Shown here: positions 6,595 through 44,154 of the stretch, in pieces
How the letters are laid out: every line of letters starts with the position of its first letter
Numbering within the stretch: the first letter of the stretch is position 1
Source of the DNA: a virus
Reading direction: 5' to 3' (one strand)
Length of the DNA stretch: 64,000 bases
Virus record (IMG/VR): IMGVR_UViG_3300027859_000006
Coordinates: 44,152 to 108,151 of that record
The notes under the pieces: model-generated
What the model saw: only the letters and a program-made list of their open reading frames with translations
Told to the model about the DNA's origin: nothing
Database searches by the model: none
Program-made: the position numbers and the translations under genes

Positions 6595-8577
6595 TTAATT
6601 TAATCCTATAAATGAAAAGGAGAAACCTGGAATAGTAATACTATTTTCTAGTCCTCCGCTACCGTTAAAGGAGAAGTACGTATAGTCGTACTCTATACCT
6701 ATAAGGGTGTCTGTAATTTTTACTAAATAAAAGGTACAACGTATAGTATACCAGGTATTCCAATAGGGGTCTCCACTAGGAAGCTCCTCTTTGTCAAATC
6801 TATATGTCTCAGAAGTGGAGTAGAAAGGTACTCTAGAAGAGAATGATGAAAATCCTATAATGCCTTTGTCTTGTGCATATAACTCTTCCCATGACTGTTG
6901 ATCGCTAGAGTAATCCCATTCCACGGGGGTAACTGAGTAACCCCAGCAGTCGGAGCTCCTAACCCCTTGGTTATCAAGTATTATTGTTAGGTCTGTCAAT
7001 ATACCTGTACCAGTAACAATACCTTCCCCTTGAGAATTAGTCTCATGAGACGGTATATTGAACGTATAAACAGGAGTAGTATGATCTGTGCTTTTGCCCA
7101 TATACCTCATACGAGTCCTTCCACGACCCGCGTTAAACCAAGTGTTACCGCCTCGTTTAATTATCCCCTTAGTCATTTCAATGTCCCATCCAGATCCGCC
7201 AGATCCGCCAAGAATTTGTACAGCATCACTAGGGTTCTGGCCGGAATACACCCCCAAGGGGTCTATCAGGCCGACTATTGGTATTATAGGATCGGATAGA
7301 TTCATACTGTTAACATACGAACCGTCGTTCACAATACCTGCATAGGCTAGGAACATACCTGAGAAATCTGCCCCATCTACTGTGAAGTTATCAGGGTCTA
7401 ATAGTATTCCAGATGCTCCGGTTTTAGCGGTTTCATAGTTTAAGTCTCTACCACTACTAACTACATTGAACTCGTATATCTCAACAGAGTTTATATCTTG
7501 AGGTGTCCTAATGTACGTGTCTCCTGAGGTGTAGTAAGCCCCTTCCGAACCGTAAGCGAAAGATCCGAGAGTATATTCAGCCTGAGCCAAGTTCTCGTTA
7601 CTAAAATTGATTTTTCTACTTATTACAGGCGCTCCACCTTTTCGGTTGCCCAGCTTATCTACAGTAACTACCATAGTTAGACGAGTAGAGCTAGGGGTAT
7701 AAGATACCAAATTTCCTGTAGTGCCGTCTAATGCGTCTGAGAATTTAAATAGCCTATTTACAAGCTCGTCAGTGTGCTCTGTTATTCTAATATATTTTAG
7801 GCATTTAATATAGTCAAACATACTATGCATGTAAGTATCATCTCCGTAGTCTACATTAATACCTACCCAATCCTGAAACCAGTCTGTCGCAGTCTTGCCT
7901 GACTCCACGGCGGGCGGAGCCGCCGGGACTACGTTAGGATTACATATATGAAGTATCTCATCTCCGGCCCGGTTTACACCAAGAAAGAAGTCGCACGGAG
8001 CCTCTGGCTCGGGTCTAGGGGGTGGAGGTGAAAGTAGGGACGCAGATACTGTGTTTGAGAAAGGCCCGTAAACTACGTCGCTGCCTGTGCCCTTCACCAT
8101 GCGGACTTTAAAACTACCCCCTTCCTCATGTATATAACTACTACCCGTGCCAGTAAATACCGTAGTACCGTTCCTTACGACTTCTACCCTTTCCCCAATA
8201 TCTGTGTTAGGGTTCCAATCTAGTAATACTCCGTCATACCTACTAGTAGCGGTCAGTACCCTAGTTTCAGGCTTCACGTGAAATATAATGTTTATGGTGT
8301 TACTAGGATATAAATTATCTGTTCTTAGCTGAGCTTTTGTAGCATTAGCTGGTGGTATTACCTTTAATGAATTGGAACTAGTAGAGGTATTAGCCGACTG
8401 CCAGTTTCCACCTACTAGCCAATATAAATGGTACATCCCTGGACTACTAGGCTCAGTCCATTGCAAGTTAGCATATTTATAAATAGGACTAGTAGAGTTT
8501 GATAAGTTTGTTACTTTTTTAGCAGGGTTGTCCGCCACAAAGTAGACGGATACCGTTCCAGTTGTATATGTAGCCAT
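6595..8577 (-). CDS. Receptor-binding protein (pb5-like) with N-terminal FN3/Ig-like extension
   Basis: T5 oad position; 660 aa beta-rich; Pro-rich linker followed by FFLGVN..ILHI resembling the pb5 N-terminus. Confidence 0.7.
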   Translation of the reverse strand: MATYTTGTVSVYFVADNPAKKVTNLSNSTSPIYKYANLQWTEPSSPGMYHLYWLVGGNWQSANTSTSSNSLKVIPPANATKAQLRTDNLYPSNTINIIFHVKPETRVLTATSRYDGVLLDWNPNTDIGERVEVVRNGTTVFTGTGSSYIHEEGGSFKVRMVKGTGSDVVYGPFSNTVSASLLSPPPPRPEPEAPCDFFLGVNRAGDEILHICNPNVVPAAPPAVESGKTATDWFQDWVGINVDYGDDTYMHSMFDYIKCLKYIRITEHTDELVNRLFKFSDALDGTTGNLVSYTPSSTRLTMVVTVDKLGNRKGGAPVISRKINFSNENLAQAEYTLGSFAYGSEGAYYTSGDTYIRTPQDINSVEIYEFNVVSSGRDLNYETAKTGASGILLDPDNFTVDGADFSGMFLAYAGIVNDGSYVNSMNLSDPIIPIVGLIDPLGVYSGQNPSDAVQILGGSGGSGWDIEMTKGIIKRGGNTWFNAGRGRTRMRYMGKSTDHTTPVYTFNIPSHETNSQGEGIVTGTGILTDLTIILDNQGVRSSDCWGYSVTPVEWDYSSDQQSWEELYAQDKGIIGFSSFSSRVPFYSTSETYRFDKEELPSGDPYWNTWYTIRCTFYLVKITDTLIGIEYDYTYFSFNGSGGLENSITIPGFSFSFIGLN

Positions 8578-8912
8578 TATAGTGGTTCCGTACCAGGGCC
8601 CCCAGGAGGAGTTCCGGCCTCTTCGTTGATTTCCATCTCAAAGTAATATTTATAGGTATTTTGATTAGTTACATTAGAATCTGTATAGATTATGTCACGT
8701 TGGATAAAAAACCCCTCGCCCCCGTCCGTTGGTAAGCTGTAATTTCCAGAAACTTTAGAGAAAGACCCATTGTTAGTAGACCTCATTACGTATCCGTATC
8801 CATCTTCTTTAAGTTGTATCCCAGACCCGCCAGAATTCACTCTAACATTTATAGATACTTCTACTGTAGCCCCTACTATTTCTGCGTTTATTGTACTGTT
8901 GTTAGTTGCCAT
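8577..8912 (-). CDS. Small FN3-like virion protein
   Basis: GGAGG RBS; Y.MRS...YTD.NV...TYKYY pattern; coupled to RBP. Confidence 0.55.
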   Translation of the reverse strand: MATNNSTINAEIVGATVEVSINVRVNSGGSGIQLKEDGYGYVMRSTNNGSFSKVSGNYSLPTDGGEGFFIQRDIIYTDSNVTNQNTYKYYFEMEINEEAGTPPGGPGTEPL

Positions 8913-9003
8913 GGTTTCCTCCTAATATTTAGTATTATACGGTAAGCTATGCAAATTTTCAATTGTATTATTTTTACCCACGGTCTAGTAATGCAATTTG
9001 CCC

Positions 9004-9177
9004 AGTGTTACACGTACGGGTATGGCCTGTACCAAGCCATTGAAGACGTGTCTGGAAACCGCCCTGTATAGTGTTTTGAGTAATATGCTAATTTTCTAAG
9101 TGTTACACGCGTCTAGTAGAATCAGCGCTGTATAGTGTTTCTATCAATATGCTAATTTTCTAAGTGTTACACACGTC
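9004..9177. repeat. Imperfect 64-bp-period direct repeat (CTGTATAGTGTTT..AATATGCTAATTTTCTAAGTGTTACAC) at the terminal-repeat boundary
   Basis: Copies start at 9064 and 9128; partial AGTGTTACACG at 9004. Confidence 0.85.
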
Positions 9178-9197
9178 TGGGGGCGACCCCGTATCTA

Positions 9198-9216
9198 AAT
9201 GAGAATAAGTCTCATT
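9198..9216. promoter_or_regulatory. Fur-box-like palindrome
   Basis: AATGAGAATAAGTCTCATT. Confidence 0.7.
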
Positions 9217-9269
9217 ACCGCCCCCTATGGGTATGGGATCACATACCTTAGCATGTGATCCCGATCCAA

Positions 9270-9653
9270 TTACTCGGTGTCGTCATCCGATCCGCTTTCT
9301 AGATCATCGATGATCGCCGCTTGTTGCTCAACAAATGCCGCTAGCGCTTCAAGTTCTCCCTTGTTCGCCTTTTCCAAGCTGTCAACCGTTAGACCTGTTG
9401 TTTCAGCGATTTGCTTAACAACTTCGATTTTACGCGTTGCGCTTGGGTTGCCCACCTTTGCCTTAGCTTCTGGCGAGATGTATTCGCCCATGCTAACCAA
9501 CTTCTGACGCGCGCTGTGTTCTGTTACGTCAGAGTCGTATGCAAGCGCTTTAAACGCTGCCGGTTCAAGCGCCTTGCCACCATTAGCTTTGATAGCTGCC
9601 GCGTATGCTGTGCTTAACTTCGCTGTGTTTTCTTCTGTCCAAACTTTAGCCAT
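9270..9653 (-). CDS. A2: A2 pre-early DNA-binding / second-step transfer protein
   Basis: WTEENTAK..SARQKLVS..Y..RK matches the T5 A2 pattern. Confidence 0.85.
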   Translation of the reverse strand: MAKVWTEENTAKLSTAYAAAIKANGGKALEPAAFKALAYDSDVTEHSARQKLVSMGEYISPEAKAKVGNPSATRKIEVVKQIAETTGLTVDSLEKANKGELEALAAFVEQQAAIIDDLESGSDDDTE

Positions 9654-9748
9654 GATTTGATCTCCTTAGATCGTAAATTAAATGTTGGTTTGTGTTTGCG
9701 GTCGTATTTTGCCCCGACCGCTTGAGCATTAAAACAAATTAAGAACGG

Positions 9749-11410
9749 TTATGCAACAACTTTTTGCGGGTTCAAGGTGATTAATTGTACCTGTCCGTTG
9801 CTGTATTCCATCATGTGACCGTGATCCCACGATGACGCGCCCCCACGGTTATAGCCTTGATTTAGTCGAGCGGTAACGCCTGTAGTAAACACTGAGCCTA
9901 TTATGCATGGGCTGTGGGTGTGTCCTGTTATTAGGTTTAAATTCCAGTCTTTGAACTGATTTGGGTTTCCTGCGCTCCCGTTTGCGCCCTTGTGCCCATG
10001 CTGCGAATAATCGAATTTAAGCGGCTTAAAAGGCTTATCCATTCGACCAAAATGCACATTATTGGGTAACTCTGGCAATGTGGTTAGATCGGCATTTTCT
10101 AAGGCGATCTGTAACGCGTTTTTCTCATGTTCACCTTGGTCTAAGGTATCGCACACTAACCAATTTAACAGATAGTATAATTTGCTGTTATGGCTGTCCT
10201 GCTTGGGATTAACGCTACTATCATCCAGCCAATTGTCGAGCGCTGAGTTGTGATTGCTCTCGGTGATCGATACGGTATCAACTATGGTAGATAATTCGGT
10301 TAACTGTACGATTACCTGTTTAAGGTCGTTCTCAACGCTTTCATGTCGATTTGCGTACAAGTGCTTCCCACTGTTACGGTTATGGTGAGACCTTGTGCTA
10401 AAGTGTAAAATATCGTCAACTGCGATCACACTTGGTTTAACTTTGTCAAGAAAGTCCATTGTCTTTTGCCAATATGCATGATCGTAAACTTCACAATGTA
10501 GATCACCAAGTTTTCCGGCTTCTGGTAATTTACCGTAATAATATTCGAGTTCAGGTAACACCACATTCAATGATCCGTCATCGCCTTGAAAAACGTTGGT
10601 AACGTTATAACCACCGTCACACTTGTAAACGATCATGGCTGCCTGTTTATGGTCTTTTTCCGCTTCTGCTCCTGCGCGACTTCTGGTGTAGTTGTACGCT
10701 GTGCAGCTACCAGTAGTGACAGCCTTTGTAATTGATTGATCGTTAAGTCGTGGTAGCGTTTTGTACTGCTGCTTGGGGCTTGCTACTACCGTGATTAGTT
10801 CACCACTATTCAGCTTGGCCGCTGCATTAATAGGCAATTTGTTAGTTGGTAAAACTGCTGCGGTGCTAGCGATCAAACAGGCGTTTTTCTCGAATAGCCA
10901 ACAATCGTCAAGCTGTAAAAACGGCGTGACCTTAGGGTTAAATACTTCGGCTTCGGTCTCTACCGCTGGACTAAAGGCGTTTTTGTTATAGTAAACGGGC
11001 ATTACCATTAAACGCGCATCTAGTAGGCTTGCTCTCATATCATCGATCATAGCAAGAAGTTGATCCTCAAAGCCTGTGGTAATAGTGTTATTTTGTGCGC
11101 TTGTAATTACGAAAACATCACCGTCTAGAACTGGCAATAAATCGCGCTGTGATTGAGTGTAACCAACTTGTGTATCTGCCGCTGGTTTAGTCGCTGCACT
11201 TGGCTTTTTCGCTTTCTCAGCCTCTCTCAGGCTCTTTAGATGCTCAACAACTAGCGGCATTAAAATAGCTGCATCGCCTTTAAGATCAAGGTTATGGATC
11301 GCATCCTCAACAACTTCCAAGCGTGAATCACGTTTACGCTTACCTAAAAGGTTATTTTCCTCGCACTCTGCGCAAAGTAGATCAAAGTTTTTATCGTTTA
11401 AATGTTTCAT
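9749..11410 (-). CDS. A1: A1 pre-early protein (host DNA degradation / second-step transfer)
   Basis: 553 aa; ITSAQNNT, GDLH, ESNH, HGHKG.NG, GHTHSP, GYN.G.SSW. Confidence 0.92.
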   Translation of the reverse strand: MKHLNDKNFDLLCAECEENNLLGKRKRDSRLEVVEDAIHNLDLKGDAAILMPLVVEHLKSLREAEKAKKPSAATKPAADTQVGYTQSQRDLLPVLDGDVFVITSAQNNTITTGFEDQLLAMIDDMRASLLDARLMVMPVYYNKNAFSPAVETEAEVFNPKVTPFLQLDDCWLFEKNACLIASTAAVLPTNKLPINAAAKLNSGELITVVASPKQQYKTLPRLNDQSITKAVTTGSCTAYNYTRSRAGAEAEKDHKQAAMIVYKCDGGYNVTNVFQGDDGSLNVVLPELEYYYGKLPEAGKLGDLHCEVYDHAYWQKTMDFLDKVKPSVIAVDDILHFSTRSHHNRNSGKHLYANRHESVENDLKQVIVQLTELSTIVDTVSITESNHNSALDNWLDDSSVNPKQDSHNSKLYYLLNWLVCDTLDQGEHEKNALQIALENADLTTLPELPNNVHFGRMDKPFKPLKFDYSQHGHKGANGSAGNPNQFKDWNLNLITGHTHSPCIIGSVFTTGVTARLNQGYNRGGASSWDHGHMMEYSNGQVQLITLNPQKVVA

Positions 11411-11475
11411 AAATAACGGTTTCCCTATTAAGGTTTTTTAAGGATCTATGAAGATCCCGTTACGAGTTGATCAAA

Positions 11476-11991
11476 TTAATGACCGTGAAAAGGAACGTGA
11501 ATTGCTTTCATGTTCAGGCGCTGTGCCATTTGGCAGTTTGCTAGATTATCATCGACCAAAAATGATCGCGACAATTCAGCCGATGAAAATGCGCGTGTTA
11601 GGTGGTACTCTTTTAATTCAAAATCTCGTCTACGATCATTTTCGCCCTCTCTGGAAAAGATTGCGGTCGGTTTGATCCCGTTTTTACGCAACCACTTTTC
11701 AGAGTTCTTGCACATAACGCGAGCGGTACAAACAAAAAATGGTCTACCTGCATCAGTTAGGAACTGCGGCACTTCTGCCAGTGGCATGATCTGATCTTTA
11801 GCAATATTTGCAGCCGTTGAAAGTTTACGATACATTTCAAGGTTAAGCGATCCGTCAGGGTGTATCGCTTGGCGGTGTGTAGCATCGATCACTACACCAT
11901 CAAGATCAAAAATAGGTATAATGCTCTGATCCAATAGGATCGCATCAGTCATTTGAAGCGCTGCCGCTCTTGTATTTTGAATTGTTAACAT
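11476..11991 (-). CDS. dmp: Deoxynucleoside 5'-monophosphatase (HAD)
   Basis: FDLDG..HR...G.L.L..YR, CTAR.M, DD; matches T5 Dmp. Confidence 0.85.
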   Translation of the reverse strand: MLTIQNTRAAALQMTDAILLDQSIIPIFDLDGVVIDATHRQAIHPDGSLNLEMYRKLSTAANIAKDQIMPLAEVPQFLTDAGRPFFVCTARVMCKNSEKWLRKNGIKPTAIFSREGENDRRRDFELKEYHLTRAFSSAELSRSFLVDDNLANCQMAQRLNMKAIHVPFHGH

Positions 11992-12164
11992 CTGGTTAAC
12001 TCCCGTTTAAGGTATATAAAAATATACGGTTTTTGTTGGGGCTGCTTGCCTCTCAACTGTTACCCATTATATAGACCAACAAACTTTTGTCTATATTAGT
12101 TTTTATACGTATGTATGAAATTATATACTTTTCATTTGCTCTGTTCTGTGCTACCCTACCAGCA

Positions 12165-12880
12165 AATGCAAATGAGAACTATTCTCATCTGACCGGCTCC
12201 GCCAGGTCGGAACGACCAAACGCAAATGAGAATGATTCGCATTCAACCGCGCCGATTTTGGGTCGCTTTCCCAGCTATGACTTATTATTGCATTTACGTG
12301 TAGCATTGTCTAGAACTAATTTATTATAAGAATGAATTTATTTAGGCGATTTTGTTATATAGTGAATTGTGGCATTCTAGCAATTACTATGCCAACTCAA
12401 AAACCGTGCCAAAGTCGCAAATCGCGTATAAGCGGTCTAAATGGCTCTGTATTGAGAGCTGGATGCAAGCCAAGCAAGTGCATTGCTATACCGTAGAAGT
12501 CTTCTCATATTGCCATTGTGTAAGTTGTTGATTTTAAAGGGAAAAATAATGCTTGACAAGCCGATGGCACGATTTTTTCTATTGCAAACGACGTGCCAAC
12601 TTTTATTGGTCAATTTCACTACTTTTTAGTCAATTTCGCTTATGGCACGGACTTTGCTAGGTAAATACGAATGCAAATGATAATGATTCGCATTTGACCG
12701 CGCCGAAAAATGGCATGGAAGTTGCTAGGGAAGTTATCAACAGGTACGTGTGAGTAAGTGAAGTTATGCACAATACTGTATAAATGTACAAGCGCTCAGC
12801 GGACGCTGGTGGACTTATCCACAGAAAATTGTGGATAAATATACCTGTATAGATATACAGTAGTTTTAAGTTGTGGGTAA
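12165..12880. promoter_or_regulatory. Cluster of host regulator sites: Fur x3, sigma54 x4 (+2 partial), IHF, DnaA x5, LexA x2
   Basis: Fur 12171, 12225, 12676; TGGCA-N6-TTGCW at 12379(-), 12583(-), 12643(+), 12711(+); IHF 12521-12533(-); DnaA 12734, 12764, 12815, 12830, 12872; SOS 12776, 12845. Confidence 0.8.
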
Positions 12881-13120
12881 CTCAAACGTACCATTTAAAG
12901 CTCCTGTAAGCCATTCTGACGGGTTTTTATGTGAGAGTAATACTAGGGCTTAGGTGGGATAGAATACCTAGTGAGTCCAGGCGAAGCCTGGTTATAAAAA
13001 ACGGGTTTTCTAGAGCGAAAAGTTATTATAAAAAGGTACTTTACAATTTTAGCCACCGCTACTATAATGTATTTAAAGGTTGAGGCAATAAGGCAGCAAC
13101 CAAAAACGGGGTATAAAAAT

Positions 13121-13486
13121 ATGAAATATTTCAATTTTGATGTTAATGCATCTATTTCTGTAAAAGTTGAACTAATTCAACTAGTATCTAACTCTGAACT
13201 AGTTGCTCTACGCTTTTCACGTACCGAAGAAATTTTTGGTATTAAAGAACTTGTAAGTGTAAAGCATGTTGCAGTGAGCAATGAAGAGGTGTACAGTACT
13301 AAGCTAGAATCCCTAGCTATTAAGGCATTTGGTACTAATAGTAAAATATACGCTACATTTTTAGTTGCAGGTAAAAACGAAAATGCTAACGAGCACTACT
13401 ATAAACTTATGGAAATTCAAGAACTCCTACACGCATTAAAAACCAGACCTAATTTAAGACTTCGTAATATGGAAGTTACAAAATAA
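13121..13486 (+). CDS. Pre-early hypothetical protein
   Basis: Sigma70 promoter and GGGG RBS upstream of MKYFNF. Confidence 0.7.
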   Translation: MKYFNFDVNASISVKVELIQLVSNSELVALRFSRTEEIFGIKELVSVKHVAVSNEEVYSTKLESLAIKAFGTNSKIYATFLVAGKNENANEHYYKLMEIQELLHALKTRPNLRLRNMEVTK

Positions 13487-13558
13487 TATAAAAAAAAAGG
13501 TCTTGACTTTCTAGTTAAGACCTGCGCCGCGCGCCGTAGGCGCCAAAATTATGACACA

Positions 13559-13606
13559 TGCAAGCTACGTGCCACTACGCAAGATTACGTGTGTGGTCTG
13601 ACCAGT
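13559..13606. promoter_or_regulatory. sigma54 site (13559-13574, -) and FadR/GntR-type palindrome TGGTCTGACCA
   Basis: TGGCACGTAGCTTGCA; TGGTCTGACCA at 13594-13604. Confidence 0.65.
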
Positions 13607-13675
13607 GAAAAAGTTGTTGCGGTCTTAGCTGGTAGCTGTATAATGATTACATCAACTAGAGACAGGGAGACAGGG

Positions 13676-13816
13676 ATGAATGCATCTCATGTTATAGGCT
13701 TGCTATTTTTAGGCCTAGCCATTGCTACACTTTTTTCTAGAGAGCCACTAGCGGCTATACCAGTGGCTACTATAGGTGTGTTGCTAATGTTTGGCAACAC
13801 TGAGAAACCAGTTTAA
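13676..13816 (+). CDS. Small membrane protein
   Basis: Two hydrophobic segments; promoter and RBS upstream. Confidence 0.6.
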   Translation: MNASHVIGLLFLGLAIATLFSREPLAAIPVATIGVLLMFGNTEKPV

Positions 13817-13840
13817 CCCCGTAGGCGATAACCGCCATTT

Positions 13841-13870
13841 TGCCCCGTCTATCTGGGCGGGGCATTTTTT
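13841..13870 (+). terminator. Rho-independent terminator
   Basis: TGCCCCGTC..GGCGGGGCA followed by T-run. Confidence 0.8.
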
Positions 13871-13882
13871 AAGGGTAGTATA

Positions 13883-14074
13883 ATGGATAAAAAATTCGGC
13901 TGGTGTGGTGCTGGCTTAATGGTAATTTTTAGCTTTACCTTGTTGCCGATTTTCGGTATACTAGGTCTGACGTTGCTTACAGTGCAAGCGGTTAGCACTA
14001 AGCAACATAACTTGACAGCTCTAAACACATTTAGTATACTAGGGCTGATTTTAAACTCTACGGGAGTAATTTAA
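13883..14074 (+). CDS. Small membrane protein
   Basis: Hydrophobic 63 aa ORF with RBS. Confidence 0.65.
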   Translation: MDKKFGWCGAGLMVIFSFTLLPIFGILGLTLLTVQAVSTKQHNLTALNTFSILGLILNSTGVI

Positions 14075-14075
14075 T

Positions 14076-14474
14076 ATGTTTAAGCAATTCGCAGCAACAC
14101 GTATTCTAGCTACAGCTATCGCTTCGGTTTTGGATTCTGGAAAGGATCTAAGTTGTGAAAATGTTGTTTCAGCTATGATGATCGAGGCAAGCAAAAACGA
14201 AATCCCTTACGCGGATTTAAAAACCTTTTGTGTTGACACGATTGTAGTGGCAACGAATACACCTACTACTCCAATCGTTGCAAACCTAGAGGAAATTGCA
14301 CAAGCGGATGATCCTCTGATGCATTTAGCCAGTCGTATATTGAGCGATGAAAACATGGGAGCGCTACAGAAAAACCTAGAGGCTGAGCCTGATGAAGATG
14401 AGGAAGAAGGTTCACTACTTGATGTGATTCGTAGCTTGCGTGGCAATGTGCGCACGGAAAAGGATGTAAACTAG
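14076..14474 (+). CDS. Pre-early hypothetical protein
   Basis: Operon-packed ORF. Confidence 0.7.
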   Translation: MFKQFAATRILATAIASVLDSGKDLSCENVVSAMMIEASKNEIPYADLKTFCVDTIVVATNTPTTPIVANLEEIAQADDPLMHLASRILSDENMGALQKNLEAEPDEDEEEGSLLDVIRSLRGNVRTEKDVN

Positions 14475-14485
14475 TAGAGGCAGCT

Positions 14486-14734
14486 ATGGCGAACACTGGC
14501 ATTGAAAAGGGGTGTTCGCCTACACCCCTGAGAACAGTAAGCACAATTCGCAGAGAGATTCAAGCCCTAGAGCAAGAATATCTCAATTTACCTAGTATAA
14601 TGGTAGCTAGTATAGTAGGGTACGATTATATAGATCGTATTAATGCGAAAAAATCAACTATTAATTTTCTCACTACCAGAATAAGACGCCGCAAGTTTTA
14701 CAACTGGCTGAGAAAGAAAACAGGGTGCAAATGA
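14486..14734 (+). CDS. Pre-early hypothetical protein
   Basis: GAGG RBS; operon-packed. Confidence 0.65.
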   Translation: MANTGIEKGCSPTPLRTVSTIRREIQALEQEYLNLPSIMVASIVGYDYIDRINAKKSTINFLTTRIRRRKFYNWLRKKTGCK

Positions 14735-14991
14735 TGAAACTAGAAGACAAACTAGAAGTGGTTAAAAAGTTAACTGACCTATTTAAACGTAACTACGGTA
14801 CACAACAAAGTGTGGAGATACTCCAAGCGTTATTCGATGCAGAGGGTAGTGCGGAGGAGGATTTCGCGGTTGATGAACTACAACCCATTTTAGGGCTACA
14901 CTTGAGCTATGTTTCTGAAAGCGATGAGACAGAGCAGAGCGACATTGATACTACCAGTTTATTATGTGAACTTTTTGCATACTGCACTTAG
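14731..14991 (+). CDS. Acidic pre-early hypothetical protein
   Basis: ATGA overlap with previous gene. Confidence 0.65.
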   Translation: MMKLEDKLEVVKKLTDLFKRNYGTQQSVEILQALFDAEGSAEEDFAVDELQPILGLHLSYVSESDETEQSDIDTTSLLCELFAYCT

Positions 14992-15093
14992 TAAAATTAA
15001 TTTCAAAAAAGCGCTTGCTTTTTTGTGTGCCCGTTGTATACTATAAACAAGTCGAGGCAATACCGCCAAGACACTAATAACGGGGTAAAAAAT

Positions 15094-15546
15094 ATGAAAA
15101 CTTCTTCTTTTGTGGCTGGTACTGTAGATTGCGTTTATCCTAGACCTGTAGAGGGTGACGACTTGGCAAAGGTGGCCGCTGCTCTAGACAGCATGGAGGA
15201 ACTTTATACAGTTGAGCTATCGCTGGATAACTCTTTTGATAGTGAGGGAGAGTACCTAGTGCCTCTATTGGCAGGGTTTGACCTGAATAATGACTACCGT
15301 GCAGAGGGCAGACTAAACAAGTCTTTCCGTGATTATAAAGACCGTAGCAAGGGCTTTGCGTTCGTAGGCAAAATGGAGGTGCAGCCTCGCTACCTACCAC
15401 AAGCAGAATTTTGGTTCAATACTACTAGAGAACCTAGCACATGGGGGGAGGCTTTGCAAGCTACCGTAGAGCGGATCAAAGAACACGACGGAAGAGGCAC
15501 TTTAGTAGTAAAAGCCCGTCGCGAAATTTTTAAAATAGCTATCTAA
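15094..15546 (+). CDS. Pre-early hypothetical protein
   Basis: TTGCTT..TATACT promoter and GGGG RBS before MKTSSF; hairpin after. Confidence 0.7.
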   Translation: MKTSSFVAGTVDCVYPRPVEGDDLAKVAAALDSMEELYTVELSLDNSFDSEGEYLVPLLAGFDLNNDYRAEGRLNKSFRDYKDRSKGFAFVGKMEVQPRYLPQAEFWFNTTREPSTWGEALQATVERIKEHDGRGTLVVKARREIFKIAI

Positions 15547-15647
15547 TCAATAATAGGGGCGCAAGCCCCCCAATACTTACAACTGGAGAAAATGAAGATG
15601 AAATTTAAAAAAGCTATGAAAATTGTAAAAAAGCTTGACAGCTAAGC

Positions 15648-15830
15648 ATGAAAGCAAAAATAACTATGCTAGAGGAATTAACAGGCATAGAGGATGGTGA
15701 AACTCTGACCAAAGAAATACTAGCGCAGGGTGTAACTCTTGAAAACGTCGCCTTAGCTAATTCAGCCGCCAACAAACATACGTTTACTTGGACAAAAGAC
15801 GACGTAGAAAGGATGCGACCTTATATGTAA
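15648..15830 (+). CDS. Hypothetical protein
   Basis: ORF track; same-strand context. Confidence 0.5.
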   Translation: MKAKITMLEELTGIEDGETLTKEILAQGVTLENVALANSAANKHTFTWTKDDVERMRPYM

Positions 15831-15846
15831 ACTAAAGTGAATAAAA

Positions 15847-16088
15847 AGTGCATATTTATGCACTTTTTTGCATAACCGCGCCGCTCCGGCACACGGATTC
15901 CCACCTATACAGTATAACAGGTCTACACGTCAACGCAAGCACTTTTTAACTGGTCAGACCACGTAATCTAAATGAGAATGATTCGCATTCAACCGCGCCG
16001 ATTTTACCATACCCTGACACAAAAAACAAGTCTACATGCAAATGATTCGTATTTAACTTTTTGAATCTAAATGCAAATGATTCGCATT
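15847..16088. promoter_or_regulatory. Second host-site cluster: ArgR box, FadR-like box, Fur x3
   Basis: AGTGCATATTTATGCACT 15847; AACTGGTCAGACCA 15948; Fur-like 15971, 16035, 16070. Confidence 0.7.
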
Positions 16089-16167
16089 CGCAAAGTAACC
16101 TTATTTTTCGACAAATAAATTTACCGAAAAATCGGGGGTTTACCCCTGTCCGGGAGCGCAGCGACCT

Positions 16168-16382
16168 GCGCCAGAGTACGATTTCGACTAGTACTAAACC
16201 GACCGCTGCCCCTACGTGTGAGCTACCCTGAGTACTAATCCGACTACCATGGCGGCTTGTCCCAATCTTCAGCAGACACTACAGCTTCTGACGGGCGTGC
16301 TGTGCTGGTGGAAGTAGACGGGCGCGAAGTGCCCGTCGCCAGAGTACGATTCTGACCTAGTACTAGACCGACCGCCTCTGCC
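16168..16382. repeat. Imperfect ~45-bp direct repeat CGCCAGAGTACGATT..CTAGTACTA.ACCGACCGC
   Basis: Copies near 16169 and 16337; partial near 16229. Confidence 0.75.
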
Positions 16383-16477
16383 AAGAGCAGGAGTTCGTCT
16401 TTTTTAGCAGCACTGAGGCTAGGGGCGGCAATGTTTAAGTGAGTACAAATCTGATTGGCTATATCTGTCTTAGTCAT
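16244..16477 (-). CDS. Truncated A2-like protein (C-terminal helical module)
   Basis: TKTDIANQI..SL.AAKKDEL..LAEAV aligns with the A2 C-terminus. Confidence 0.5.
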   Translation of the reverse strand: MTKTDIANQICTHLNIAAPSLSAAKKDELLLLAEAVGLVLGQNRTLATGTSRPSTSTSTARPSEAVVSAEDWDKPPW

Positions 16478-16509
16478 GCTTATTCCGGTTAATTCAACTT
16501 ATACGCATA

Positions 16510-17178
16510 TTATATAAGGTTTATAGCGGAAAAGCAAGGGATTTCTTGGCTTATTTTGGGCTTTTCAGGGAATCTTATATCAGGCTTAAATGCGTACCAT
16601 TTACCATCTAGAGTATAAGAATTATGATACTTTGCGCAATATATAGTGTCAAAGTTATATATACCCTCATCTTCTACATACTCCCAGAACTCAGCTAAAG
16701 ACCATCCGGCCGGTTTGACCTCCGAAGGAGGGAGGTAGCCGAGAACCCTGTAGGCGTTGTTGTCTATTAAAAATTGTTCAGTCTTGTCACCCACCAGCGC
16801 CTCTATTTCAGAGTACAAATCCGGTGACAGTTTATTTTTAGTCAGTACCTCTGTAGCAGCAAGTCTCTTTAAAGCGGCTACCCCTGTTTTTCTAACTAGA
16901 GGTAGGATCTCGGAACAGACGTAAAGCTGCCATTCTCTTGCTGTTGGCATATCAGATCGCATTAAAAAGAAGTAAAGAACCTGCTCAGCATACAATTTAC
17001 GTCCGTCGGAGCACGGTGCACTCTCGATACGTAAATCAGCATTACGCTTAAGAAAATCTCGTATTGCTCGCTTAGGCTCTGAGTAACCTAGCTTCTCTGC
17101 AAATTCTTCAAGGTCAAAATAAAATTCGTTGTTTATCTCGTAGAGTGAGACACCCTTTTCTAAGTTTAGTATATTCAT
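16510..17178 (-). CDS. Bro-N domain DNA-binding protein
   Basis: F....A..LGY..P..AI; Y.FLMRS..P.A..WQ.YV..EILP..RKTG. Confidence 0.8.
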   Translation of the reverse strand: MNILNLEKGVSLYEINNEFYFDLEEFAEKLGYSEPKRAIRDFLKRNADLRIESAPCSDGRKLYAEQVLYFFLMRSDMPTAREWQLYVCSEILPLVRKTGVAALKRLAATEVLTKNKLSPDLYSEIEALVGDKTEQFLIDNNAYRVLGYLPPSEVKPAGWSLAEFWEYVEDEGIYNFDTIYCAKYHNSYTLDGKWYAFKPDIRFPEKPKISQEIPCFSAINLI

Positions 17179-17230
17179 AGGTTTCAGTATATCAAAAATA
17201 GTCTAGGAGGGCAAATGATTTAACAAAACA

Positions 17231-17291
17231 CTTGATTCGAGACGTTTTTTAACGTATAATACTTGTATTGAATGAATGAGGAAGAACGAAT
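17231..17291 (+). promoter_or_regulatory. Early promoter-leader cassette
   Basis: TTGATT-17-TATAAT followed by ACTTGTATTGAAT..ATGAGGA. Confidence 0.8.
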
Positions 17292-17603
17292 ATGTGGAAC
17301 GAACAAAAATCTGCTCAACTAGTTAAGACTTACAAAACTAACGGCTACGATGCTGCGCAAGCGGCGAAGGCGCTTGGAGTATCGGAACGCTCTGCTATCT
17401 CTAAGCTGGTGGCTCTAGGAGAGTATGTTAAGCCTGTTAAGGTACAAGCTTCCACGGGGCGCATTAATAAAACTCAGTACATTTCTGCGGTCGAGGCAAT
17501 GCTAGGAGTCAAGTCTGGTAAACTAGCGGGTCTCTCTGGGGCTAGTGCTAATGCGATAGAAGAATTAGCGGCTGCTCTTGTAAAACTAGGAGACCGTGCA
17601 TAA
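17292..17603 (+). CDS. A2/D3-family paralogue
   Basis: MWNE..SERSAISKLV.LGEY versus A2 HSARQKLVSMGEY. Confidence 0.7.
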   Translation: MWNEQKSAQLVKTYKTNGYDAAQAAKALGVSERSAISKLVALGEYVKPVKVQASTGRINKTQYISAVEAMLGVKSGKLAGLSGASANAIEELAAALVKLGDRA

Positions 17604-17851
17604 TGGATGTTATTGTTGGAATTTGGACTGTATTAACCCTTCTAGGGTATCTAGCCTACTTCGCAGGCGACAGAGCGACTGTAGTAATGTATGACCTAGA
17701 GGTGTATCAGGGTAGAGTATTCAATTGGGCGGATGCAGTTAGTATTATCCTAGGGGTGGTATCGGGGCACTATTGGCTGTCTTTGCTAGTGCCGCTCAGC
17801 TCGATTCTCATGTATAAGCGCACTCGCAAAAAGTTGGGACGTCCCAGCTAG
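17603..17851 (+). CDS. Membrane protein
   Basis: Hydrophobic segments; coupled start. Confidence 0.6.
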   Translation: MDVIVGIWTVLTLLGYLAYFAGDRATVVMYDLEVYQGRVFNWADAVSIILGVVSGHYWLSLLVPLSSILMYKRTRKKLGRPS

Positions 17852-17944
17852 CGCCGCTCCGCGGCGAGCCCTTTCCCATCTATAACATGTATTATACGCG
17901 GAATTGAGCCCGTTTGCAAGTGATTTTTAGTAAGAAACTGGTGA

Positions 17945-18410
17945 GGCTAGGGTGGGTTTTGGGAAAGACTCGGGGAATTTTAGTCGCGCCTAACGGTCGT
18001 TTACGACCTGCGCCTCCGAAAAAGCTAAAAAATTGCTTGCGAGGCTACAAACCCAAATTTCGCCACTTCGCGGCGGATTAGGGTAAAATGTTGCAAACCC
18101 AATCTTGGCCGTAAACGGCCGGGTTATGGGTAGAAGTGTAATAGACCTAGGGGAAGGTTGGGAGGGATTTGGGATACAAGTGTAATCCGCATCGAGGAAA
18201 GAATTTGGGTAAGTGTTGCTAAGGTTCTCGCCGGAACAATGCCGAAGGCATAGAGTGGGCGAGGATATAGCAGAAGTGTAATAGAAGTATAGTAGAGTCT
18301 AGGGAGAAGTCTAGGCTAGAGTTGGAAAGGCAGCGGGCGGGGCGAGTCCAGGGCCGTATGTTGGGAAGGGTCGGGGAAGGTTGGGATGGATTTGGGATTA
18401 AGTGGGGAAA
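17945..18410 (+). repeat. G-skewed repeat region (G-quadruplex motifs, repeated GGGGAAGGTTGGGA.GGATTTGGGAT); likely injection-stop / terminal-repeat end
   Basis: Copies at 18150 and 18373; AGAAGTGTAATAG twice; strong purine skew. Confidence 0.65.
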
Positions 18411-18736
18411 CATTCCTCTGATATAGCTATAAGTATAACTATAAATAACTATCCCTCCTAGTTTTTTGATACTCAAAATTTTAAAATTGGTACTTTTTCG
18501 ATAGATACAATTATGGCAATAAAATCTTTTTGTTGTGTTCGCTTAAAGCGTCTATTTCTTAGTATTGGTTAGGCTTGTCAAAGTTTTTTGGGGTGTGCTT
18601 TAAACAGAGTCGCACCCCACTTTGAGCCAAACCGACTAAGAAGTCGCTAAAGCTCACATCAATAGAGAGTCATATAACTCTCTAGAAGATGTTAATATTG
18701 TAGCAGATTTTTTTCTCCATGTAAAGTATTTTTCTT

Positions 18737-44056: not shown

Positions 44057-44154
44057 TTATATTGTATGAGTAGAGTAAACCATATACAGACAAGGCCCTA
44101 CTCTAATTGCTAATCCCATAGCTTTGATTACAAATTCTGTGCTTTTATGTTCTA

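Follow-up and report, generated by a model that had tools for sequence, protein, structure and literature searches.

The DNA packaged by phages T5 and BF23 contains major single-chain interruptions that have a common GCGC core with flanking purines and lie on the strand that is sense for the pre-early gene A1. The T5 consensus for these major nicks is 5'-R/GCGCRGG-3' (PMC3517423, citing AY543070), and in the T5 record the minus strand carries annotated nicks at 78573/78574 and, within the injection stop signal, at 9748/9749. The T5 nicking genes, sciA and sciB, map to the late region, and the T5 record does not identify their sequences. Nicks that are likewise sequence-specific and confined to one strand, with a short consensus, are found in the phiKMV-like and LUZ24-like (tf) Pseudomonas phages (PMC3517423), although their consensus and families are unrelated and the word is nearly one-stranded genome-wide, unlike in T5 or in the DNA described here. 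The T5 injection stop signal corresponds to "Repeat Region 3" of the left terminal repeat (doi 10.1101/866236, Davison 2020), in an account that leaves both nicks and Fur unmentioned. The purpose of the T5 nicks and the workings of the injection stop have been open for about 50 years. The stop signal itself was reportedly described by Heusterspreute in 1987 and by Wang in 2005. This text compares these systems with a window of 64,000 nt of virus DNA (positions 44,152 to 108,151 of IMG/VR record IMGVR_UViG_3300027859_000006), in which a GC-rich word, ACCGCGCCG, or in its 8-mer form ACCGCGCC, recurs beside palindromes that resemble Fur-binding sites. The motifs with a GCGCC core in this window are put forward tentatively, with slightly less than even confidence, as candidate recognition sites of a T5-type packaged-DNA nicking system.

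The part of the window from about 9175 to 18500 is the collapsed terminal repeat of an uncultured T5-like phage, that is, its first-injected DNA. The assembly is 108,151 bp long and its ends overlap by 13 bp, which indicates that it is circularly collapsed, with the terminal repeat present once. Moreover, A1 and A2 genes, the flanking genes, and the G-rich repeats show that the 9-kb span covered by the preliminary description of this DNA is essentially the whole terminal repeat, the DNA of first-step transfer. The features that define it are the following.

9270-9653, minus strand: A2-like pre-early gene (phrog_1725).
9749-11410, minus strand: pre-early gene A1 (phrog_1745, E 5e-130; also matched by tblastn to A1 of T5-like phages).
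17940-18398, plus strand: G-rich GGGAAGG-type repeats (family D5), which mark the inner end of the terminal repeat (compare T5 10000-10150).

Left of 8912 the genes are on the minus strand, and their sizes and order recall the terminase and receptor-binding genes that precede the right repeat in T5, a comparison made on gene lengths only and including a 660-aa open reading frame (ORF) that has no PHROG match. The nearest cultured A1 is that of Vibrio phage phi3 (47% identical), the A1 of T5 being 30% identical, and a Megablast search of 9000-18100 against the phage collection returned no close cultured relative. Because both A1 and the A2-like gene are on the minus strand, this is the A1-sense strand here, as in T5. 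The sites on which the comparison with the T5 nicks turns are given next, together with their state in two close relatives, L011 and L012.

12225-12259, plus strand: Fur-like box, CA, ACCGCGCCG, ATTTT; a composite unit.
12676-12705, plus strand: Fur-like box, TG, ACCGCGCCG, with a sigma54-like -24/-12 element (12711) 5 nt on; kept in L012, lost in L011.
13498-13544, plus strand: hairpin (-13.7 kcal/mol, z -3.6) whose 3' arm runs into CCTGCGCC (13521-13528), then GCGCGCC and GGCGCC.
15875-15883, plus strand: ACCGCGCCG, 6 nt past the hairpin at 15843-15868 and in its T-rich tail; L011 has ACCGCGCCA.
15971-16005, plus strand: Fur-like box, CA, ACCGCGCCG, ATTTT; duplicate of 12224-12259; from the motif on, L011 and L012 have the same sequence.
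16156-16172, minus strand reading G/GCGCAGG: palindrome GCGCAG-CGAC-CTGCGC plus C, with a fold of -7.4 kcal/mol and a predicted nick at 16171/16172.
17995-18014, minus strand: hairpin GGTCG-TTTA-CGACC running into CCTGCGCC (18007-18014).

The copies of CCTGCGCC at 13521, 16165, and 18007 read G/GCGCAGG on the minus strand and match the T5 consensus at all eight positions, as do further copies at -1179 and 34342. The ACCGCGCCG copies match at seven of the eight, since ACCGCGCC reads G/GCGCGGT on the minus strand, where the outermost (last) base is T and not G; among real T5 sites the closest is CCCGCGCC at 78567, and ATTTGACCGCGCC at 12692 is one base off the T5 64.8% major-nick site ATTTGCCCGCGCC. 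The matching strand is the A1-sense (minus) strand, which is the strand nicked in T5, A1 being on the minus strand in both genomes. In T5 itself the minus-strand matches to the consensus lie at 9742, 22330, 39740, 78567, 107517, and 121273, and five of these six coincide with the classical major-nick map positions of 7.9, 18.5, 32.6, 64.8, and 99.6%. As in T5 and BF23, one site here lies in a palindrome at the junction of a Fur-like array and AATCCGAC-type repeats. Unlike in those phages, four sites read GGCGCGGT, whose last base departs from the consensus, and are joined to a Fur-like palindrome.

The palindrome at that junction also agrees with T5 in its surroundings. Positions 9400-10150 of T5 contain, in order, a LexA-type box, DnaA boxes, about six Fur-like boxes, and a palindrome whose right arm, CCCTGCGC/T, holds the nick, followed by TGTGCAAATCCGACA repeats and then by G-rich repeats, and phage chee24 has this same layout. 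In phi3, LexA-type and DnaA boxes are followed by four 35-bp repeats, the palindrome GCGCGGGA..TCCCGCGC/C, and GTGCAAAACCGA repeats; the 35-bp repeats, ATTAGCTAGAACTAATAAAGGTAAGGCTAA, are in tandem (7245-7500 of the phi3 record, L014) and occupy the slot of the Fur-like boxes. The metagenomic contig L099, whose A1 is 44% identical, has a sigma54-like element, a Fur-like unit, more Fur-like boxes, GCGCAG..CCCTGCGC/C, AGTACGAAACCGA repeats, and finally G-rich repeats. In the window, Fur-like boxes at 15971-16088 precede GCGCAG-CGAC-CTGCGC/C at 16156-16172, which is followed by repeats of the AGTACTAAACCGAC type.

16173-16375, plus strand: repeats AGTACGATTTCGAC, AGTACTAAACCGAC, and AGTACTAATCCGAC (families D8 and D9), the counterparts of the T5 "DRD" repeats TGTGCAAATCCGACA.

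The observed order of box array, CCYGCGC/Y palindrome, and AATCCGAC-type repeats is the same in T5, chee24, phi3, L099, and this phage, and it makes the 16165 site the positional counterpart of the T5 7.9% nick. On this comparison the slot of the Fur-like boxes is conserved, whereas the boxes themselves differ by lineage. The T5 counterpart of the palindrome folds at -8.4 kcal/mol, versus -7.4 kcal/mol here, and the 16165 site is invariant in L011 and L012. The 18007 site shares CGACCTGCGCC with it and, like the T5 nick, precedes the inferred inner end of the repeat by about 400-500 nt. The hairpin at 13498-13544 is not conserved, as L011 has other Fur-plus-GCCGCGCCGATTTT units and L012 a deletion. 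Among the D8 repeats, the second copy (16333-16340) reads CCGTCGCC here and CCTGCGCC in both relatives. The repeats at 16173-16247 also contain TGAGTACT, AGAGTACG, and TAGTACTA, which recall the core of the SlmA-binding sequence, GTGAGTACTCAC.

The Fur consensus is a 19-bp dyad of the 7-1-7 form, TGATAAT-N-ATTATCA. The genome has six Fur-like boxes with no more than two mismatches to AATGANAATNATTNTCATT and one overlapping match with three, all inside the repeat. The half-site is usually TGAGAAT, one base off TGATAAT. The boxes could serve a phage protein instead of host Fur. The preliminary description saw a Fur site at 9198 and three more in a cluster at 15847-16088.

9198, 12171, 12225, 12676, 15971, and 16070, plus 16036: Fur-like boxes, the only matches in the genome with up to three mismatches to the 19-mer.
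9198-9225, plus strand: Fur-like palindrome AATGAGAATAAGTCTCATT, followed directly by ACCGCCCCC; kept in L011 and L012.
9217: the motif variant ACCGCCCCC.
12171-12189: Fur-like box with the decayed motif CTGACCGGCTCCGCC.
16036-16088: two more Fur-like boxes with no motif after them.
17851: the motif variant GCGCCG.

The composite arrangement of a Fur-like palindrome, two nucleotides, and ACCGCGCC is not confined to this phage. A scan of 80 IMG/VR loci bearing A1 found it in about 25 enterobacterial T5-like contigs as a perfect palindrome, AATGAGAAT[G/C]ATTCTCATT, followed by TG (TA in one contig) and ACCGCGCC, the 8-mer having single-base variants in a few of these contigs; the unit lies there about 360 bp left of the Fur-like array. 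The 101-bp stretch around it recurs in 175 enterobacterial T5-like phage records at 94-100% identity and is unannotated. In Tequintavirus-type phages such as chee24 (MF431730 9152-9180) the unit, "AATGAGAAT[G/C]ATTCTCATT-TG-ACCGCGCC", is likewise unannotated and stands at the start of Repeat Region 3. It has in common with the units of the window the palindrome, the 2-nt spacer, the 8-mer, the orientation relative to A1, and a place after a terminator-like hairpin, but it is single-copy, versus four copies here, and is followed by a long hairpin where the units here are followed by sigma54-like or promoter-like sequence. An exact-pattern scan of IMG/VR returned 33 stretches, which beyond the enterobacterial group and this clade included full units in L100 (A1 64% identical), L099 (44%), and L102/L114 (34%), always antisense to A1, and also in L106 and L109. 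Four of the 33 (L123, L124, L125, and L127) have no palindrome and were discarded, being GC-rich contigs that match by chance.

In every lineage a constant 2 nt separates the palindrome from ACCGCGCC. The number of units in the window's clade varies from two to four. L100 has a single unit, syntenic with the 12246 copy and beside the same leftward promoter-like sequence, which points to one copy as the ancestral state and to 12225-12259 as the ancestral copy. To judge from these lineages, the unit is one conserved and old composite element that has been multiplied here, and the nick-consensus palindrome and the ACCGCGCC unit both outlast a divergence of A1 to about 30% identity, which argues that both are functional. 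In several units of other lineages a TGGCAY element is found 3-5 nt after ACCGCGCC. The pre-early operon is preceded by two tandem leftward sigma70-like promoters on the minus strand (12066-12093 and 12284-12312), which flank the boxes at 12171 and 12225 as well as the 12246 motif; this motif is exact in L011 and L012 even though the L012 box has changed.

A related element marks the left end of the genome. In T5-like records with true termini (L030, L032, L034, L039, and phi3, L014), a Fur-like box with ACCGCCC lies 17-30 nt from position 1, and at the left end of T5 the palindrome has decayed but AGTCT-N4-ACCGCC persists. The box at 9198-9225 corresponds to this terminal element, which places the left genome end probably near 9174-9181, and the same box would give the likely left end in other collapsed T5-like assemblies. 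Three repeats of the AATTTTCTAAGTGTTACACGCGTCT type (families D6 and D7) occur at 8995-9178, just outside this position, and a similar word, GTGTTACGTGTCG, follows the ACCGCGCC unit in enterobacterial T5-like phages.

The 108,151-bp genome has exactly four copies of ACCGCGCCG (12246, 12697, 15875, and 15992), each on the plus strand and after an inverted repeat, in agreement with the preliminary description, which had the motif directly following a box at these positions; the variants it listed near 9217, 13520, 16165, 17850, and 18005 are present, and the 36-bp unit 12224-12259 is an exact duplicate of 15970-16005. Under an order-2 Markov model 0.066 copies are expected (Poisson p 7e-7), but the significance falls to about 0.2 once corrected over all 9-mers, and two of the four copies belong to one duplication. 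The word ranks 16th among all 9-mers in the Markov scan, below promoter -10, tRNA T-arm, and Fur-box words, and ACCTGCGCC ranks 20th, with five copies on the plus strand and one, the 3' end of a tRNA gene, on the minus strand (0.18 expected). Allowing one mismatch to the motif gave eight matches versus 3.3 expected, a number reached by three of 100 shuffles. The earlier statement that all copies have one orientation holds for the longer word C[CT]GCGCC, whose copies inside the repeat split 7:0 by strand and those elsewhere 3:2 (with a tRNA 3' end as one of the two minus copies), and does not hold for the bare GCGCC 5-mer core, at 15:6. The proposed genome-wide check on GGCGCRG gave 10:2, a modest bias, and the relatives G001 and G002 have the same polarity (11:2 and 9:0 for both words combined). 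As a test it fails, because T5 itself has no bias (12:7 for the 7-mer and 5:3 for the 8-mer), and strand bias therefore cannot discriminate between nick and non-nick sites.

On the reading favoured here, a phage function would, late in infection, cut the A1-sense (minus) strand just 5' of GCGC (R/GCGCRG), and nicks would then cluster in the first-injected 9 kb, every one of them immediately 3' of a plus-strand inverted repeat. Two classes of sites would be involved, namely (a) CCTGCGCC at 13521, at 18007, and, in palindromic form as counterpart of the T5 7.9% nick, at 16165, and (b) ACCGCGCCG at 2 nt from a Fur-like palindrome, which is single-copy in most lineages and present four times here. 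Three things favour nicking: the motifs fit the consensus on the proper strand, one palindrome is orthologous to that of T5, and one stretch is nearly identical to a real T5 site; from these likenesses we infer both the cutting at any of these sites and an enzyme responsible for it. The preliminary description had already suggested T5-like nick sites, and consensus, strand, and the 16165 layout agree with it, while the number of sites is unlike T5 and the 8-mer is insufficient to define a nick. Its candidate enzyme, an HNH nickase, found no counterpart, as PF01844 and PF13392 match nothing in this genome, other nuclease families not having been searched, and this is one of several points that weigh against nicking. 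T5 has five copies of the 8-mer on the un-nicked strand, and its minus copy at 107517 is un-nicked. Seven candidate sites fall within 6 kb here, versus one major nick in the T5 repeat, and at its other three major sites T5 shows neither a palindrome nor a Fur-like box alongside. Since the ACCGCGCC unit is absent from T5, it has no counterpart among the mapped nicks of that phage. The polarity of the motif follows in part from direct duplication of units. One copy has been lost in L011, and in three close relatives the motif columns are 81% conserved, versus 74% for other non-coding columns (p 0.34); lacking a conservation excess, that comparison has no power, and only the deep comparison argues for function. 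Finally, a nickase that read only the sequence would not account for the fixed 2-nt distance between ACCGCGCC and the palindrome; this coupling points instead to a composite protein-binding site.

This last point leads to the alternative that ACCGCGCC is un-nicked and forms, with the Fur-like palindrome, a composite binding site for host Fur plus a second factor, or for phage A2 or a paralogue, which we consider a serious but rather unlikely possibility; its role would be to pause DNA entry or to regulate the pre-early promoters, and the likeness to the nick consensus would be coincidental. The fixed coupling fits such a site at least as well as it fits nicking, since the 2-nt spacing is constant in every lineage and the motif is exact where the box mutates (L012). 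The position of the ancestral copy between two leftward sigma70-like promoters and the TGGCAY -24 element that often comes 3-5 nt after the unit would also suit a binding site, and the other T5 nick sites need no palindrome. However, it would be an improbable coincidence for a rare GC-rich consensus to be matched at seven of eight positions on the correct strand while perfect sites lie close by in the same orientation; moreover, T5 does without the unit and a matching known host factor could not be named. That the motif is functionless and hitch-hikes on Fur-box units copied by recombination, so that copying would account for both polarity and over-representation, is improbable: the exact 36-bp duplicate, the two to four copies among close relatives, and the absence of extra conservation there are what it would predict, but the same 8-mer is kept at the same distance from the palindrome across lineages whose A1 proteins are 31-64% identical, and the 15875 copy follows a different inverted repeat. 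Little weight is given, too, to the idea that the ACCGC-type word belongs to genome-end machinery (terminase or terminal-repeat duplication), the internal units being copies or decoys of the left-terminal box. The box with ACCGCC(C) at 17-30 nt from the left end in enterobacterial T5-like phages and phi3, the window's own box at 9198, and the T5 remnant speak for it; on the other hand, the terminal box has ACCGCCC without a spacer whereas the internal units have ACCGCGCC after 2 nt, the inner end of the T5 repeat has no similar box, and physical ends are not read from a collapsed assembly.

Nicking and the conserved palindromes could also be parts of one device. In this bolder and distinctly improbable proposal, the AATGAGAAT..ATTCTCATT palindromes would serve a phage protein as docking sites from which it places a strand-specific cut at a fixed distance, and would not be, or not only be, host Fur decoys, while the terminal variant, palindrome plus ACCGCCC, would be an end-forming signal. 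If true, such a docking and cutting module would tie together nicks, injection-stop repeats, and end formation, three old puzzles of T5. A natural test series exists in T5 without the unit, chee24-type phages with one copy, and this clade with two to four. The motif is, on present evidence, a multiplied variant of a known and unexplained T5-like feature, and the result is incremental, drawn from sequence alone, and concerns a known kind of feature; the new points are that ACCGCGCC belongs to a composite unit, how widely this unit is spread, and that it is multiplied here, together with the terminal box and the position assigned to the 16165 site.

Several other elements accompany these sites in the repeat.

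13560-13574, minus strand: sigma54-like element.
13594-13604: TGGTCTGACCA, one arm of a 29-nt inverted repeat with 15934-15962.
15843-15868: perfect AT-rich palindrome (the "ArgR box"), a hairpin (-9.6 kcal/mol, z -4.9) with a T run behind it; an ORF stops at 15830.

The cluster of a sigma54 element with TGGTCTGACCA noted earlier at 13559-13604 has both of its elements, and all five TGGCAY-N5-TTGC (sigma54-type -24/-12) elements of the genome lie within the terminal repeat (12394, 12598, 12643, 12711, and 13574), an addition of this phage relative to T5. The palindrome at 15843-15868, first read as an ArgR box, is more simply a terminator, given its strong hairpin and T run just past an ORF stop; fold and terminator scan favour this, the ArgR reading was set aside, and the hairpin probably terminates transcription in both directions, as an intrinsic terminator where two gene blocks converge. 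ACCGCGCCG with its flank forms no hairpin of its own (z 0.2).

The clusters of boxes, described at first as satellite clusters, are not a new cassette system and correspond instead to the injection-stop layout of T5, split by inserted gene blocks. Like T5 Repeat Region 3, the repeat has a LexA-like box and paired DnaA boxes. It also shares with that region arrays of AATGAGAAT..ATT palindromes together with a GC palindrome, and short direct repeats as well as the G-rich block that marks the inner end. The DnaA palindrome at 12815/12838 and the LexA-type box at 12845 lie in long non-coding DNA of the terminal repeat, which has palindromes and direct repeats as Repeat Region 3 does. The T5 layout is contiguous within about 1 kb, whereas here it is distributed over four spacers (12000-13066, 13487-13660, 15831-16243, and 17852-18500), divided by inserted gene blocks at 13067-15830 and 16244-17851.

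The pre-early genes (9270-11991) are arranged, in the direction of transcription, as a dmp-like phosphatase gene (171 aa), A1, and A2, whereas T5 has A2, A1, and dmp; the order differs from both T5 and phi3. The region 16510-17603, between the AATCCGAC-type repeats and the G-rich block, contains two genes that are both inside the terminal repeat: one is Ant-like (anti-repressor, 222 aa, minus strand), the other a second A2-like gene with a weaker match (103 aa, phrog_1725, E 5e-5). Rfam and tRNA scans of 8900-18700 returned no RNA element. Of the eight genome copies of the E. coli-type Chi sequence GCTGGTGG, four (12805, 16304, and 17405 on the plus strand, 16798 on the minus strand) fall in the terminal repeat, a stretch that makes up about 9% of the genome. 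The most over-represented word genome-wide is GTATTATACGT, which probably represents the -10 region of early promoters of the phage itself, most of them located in the tRNA region, and TATTATACG occurs 19 times on the plus strand and three times on the minus strand.

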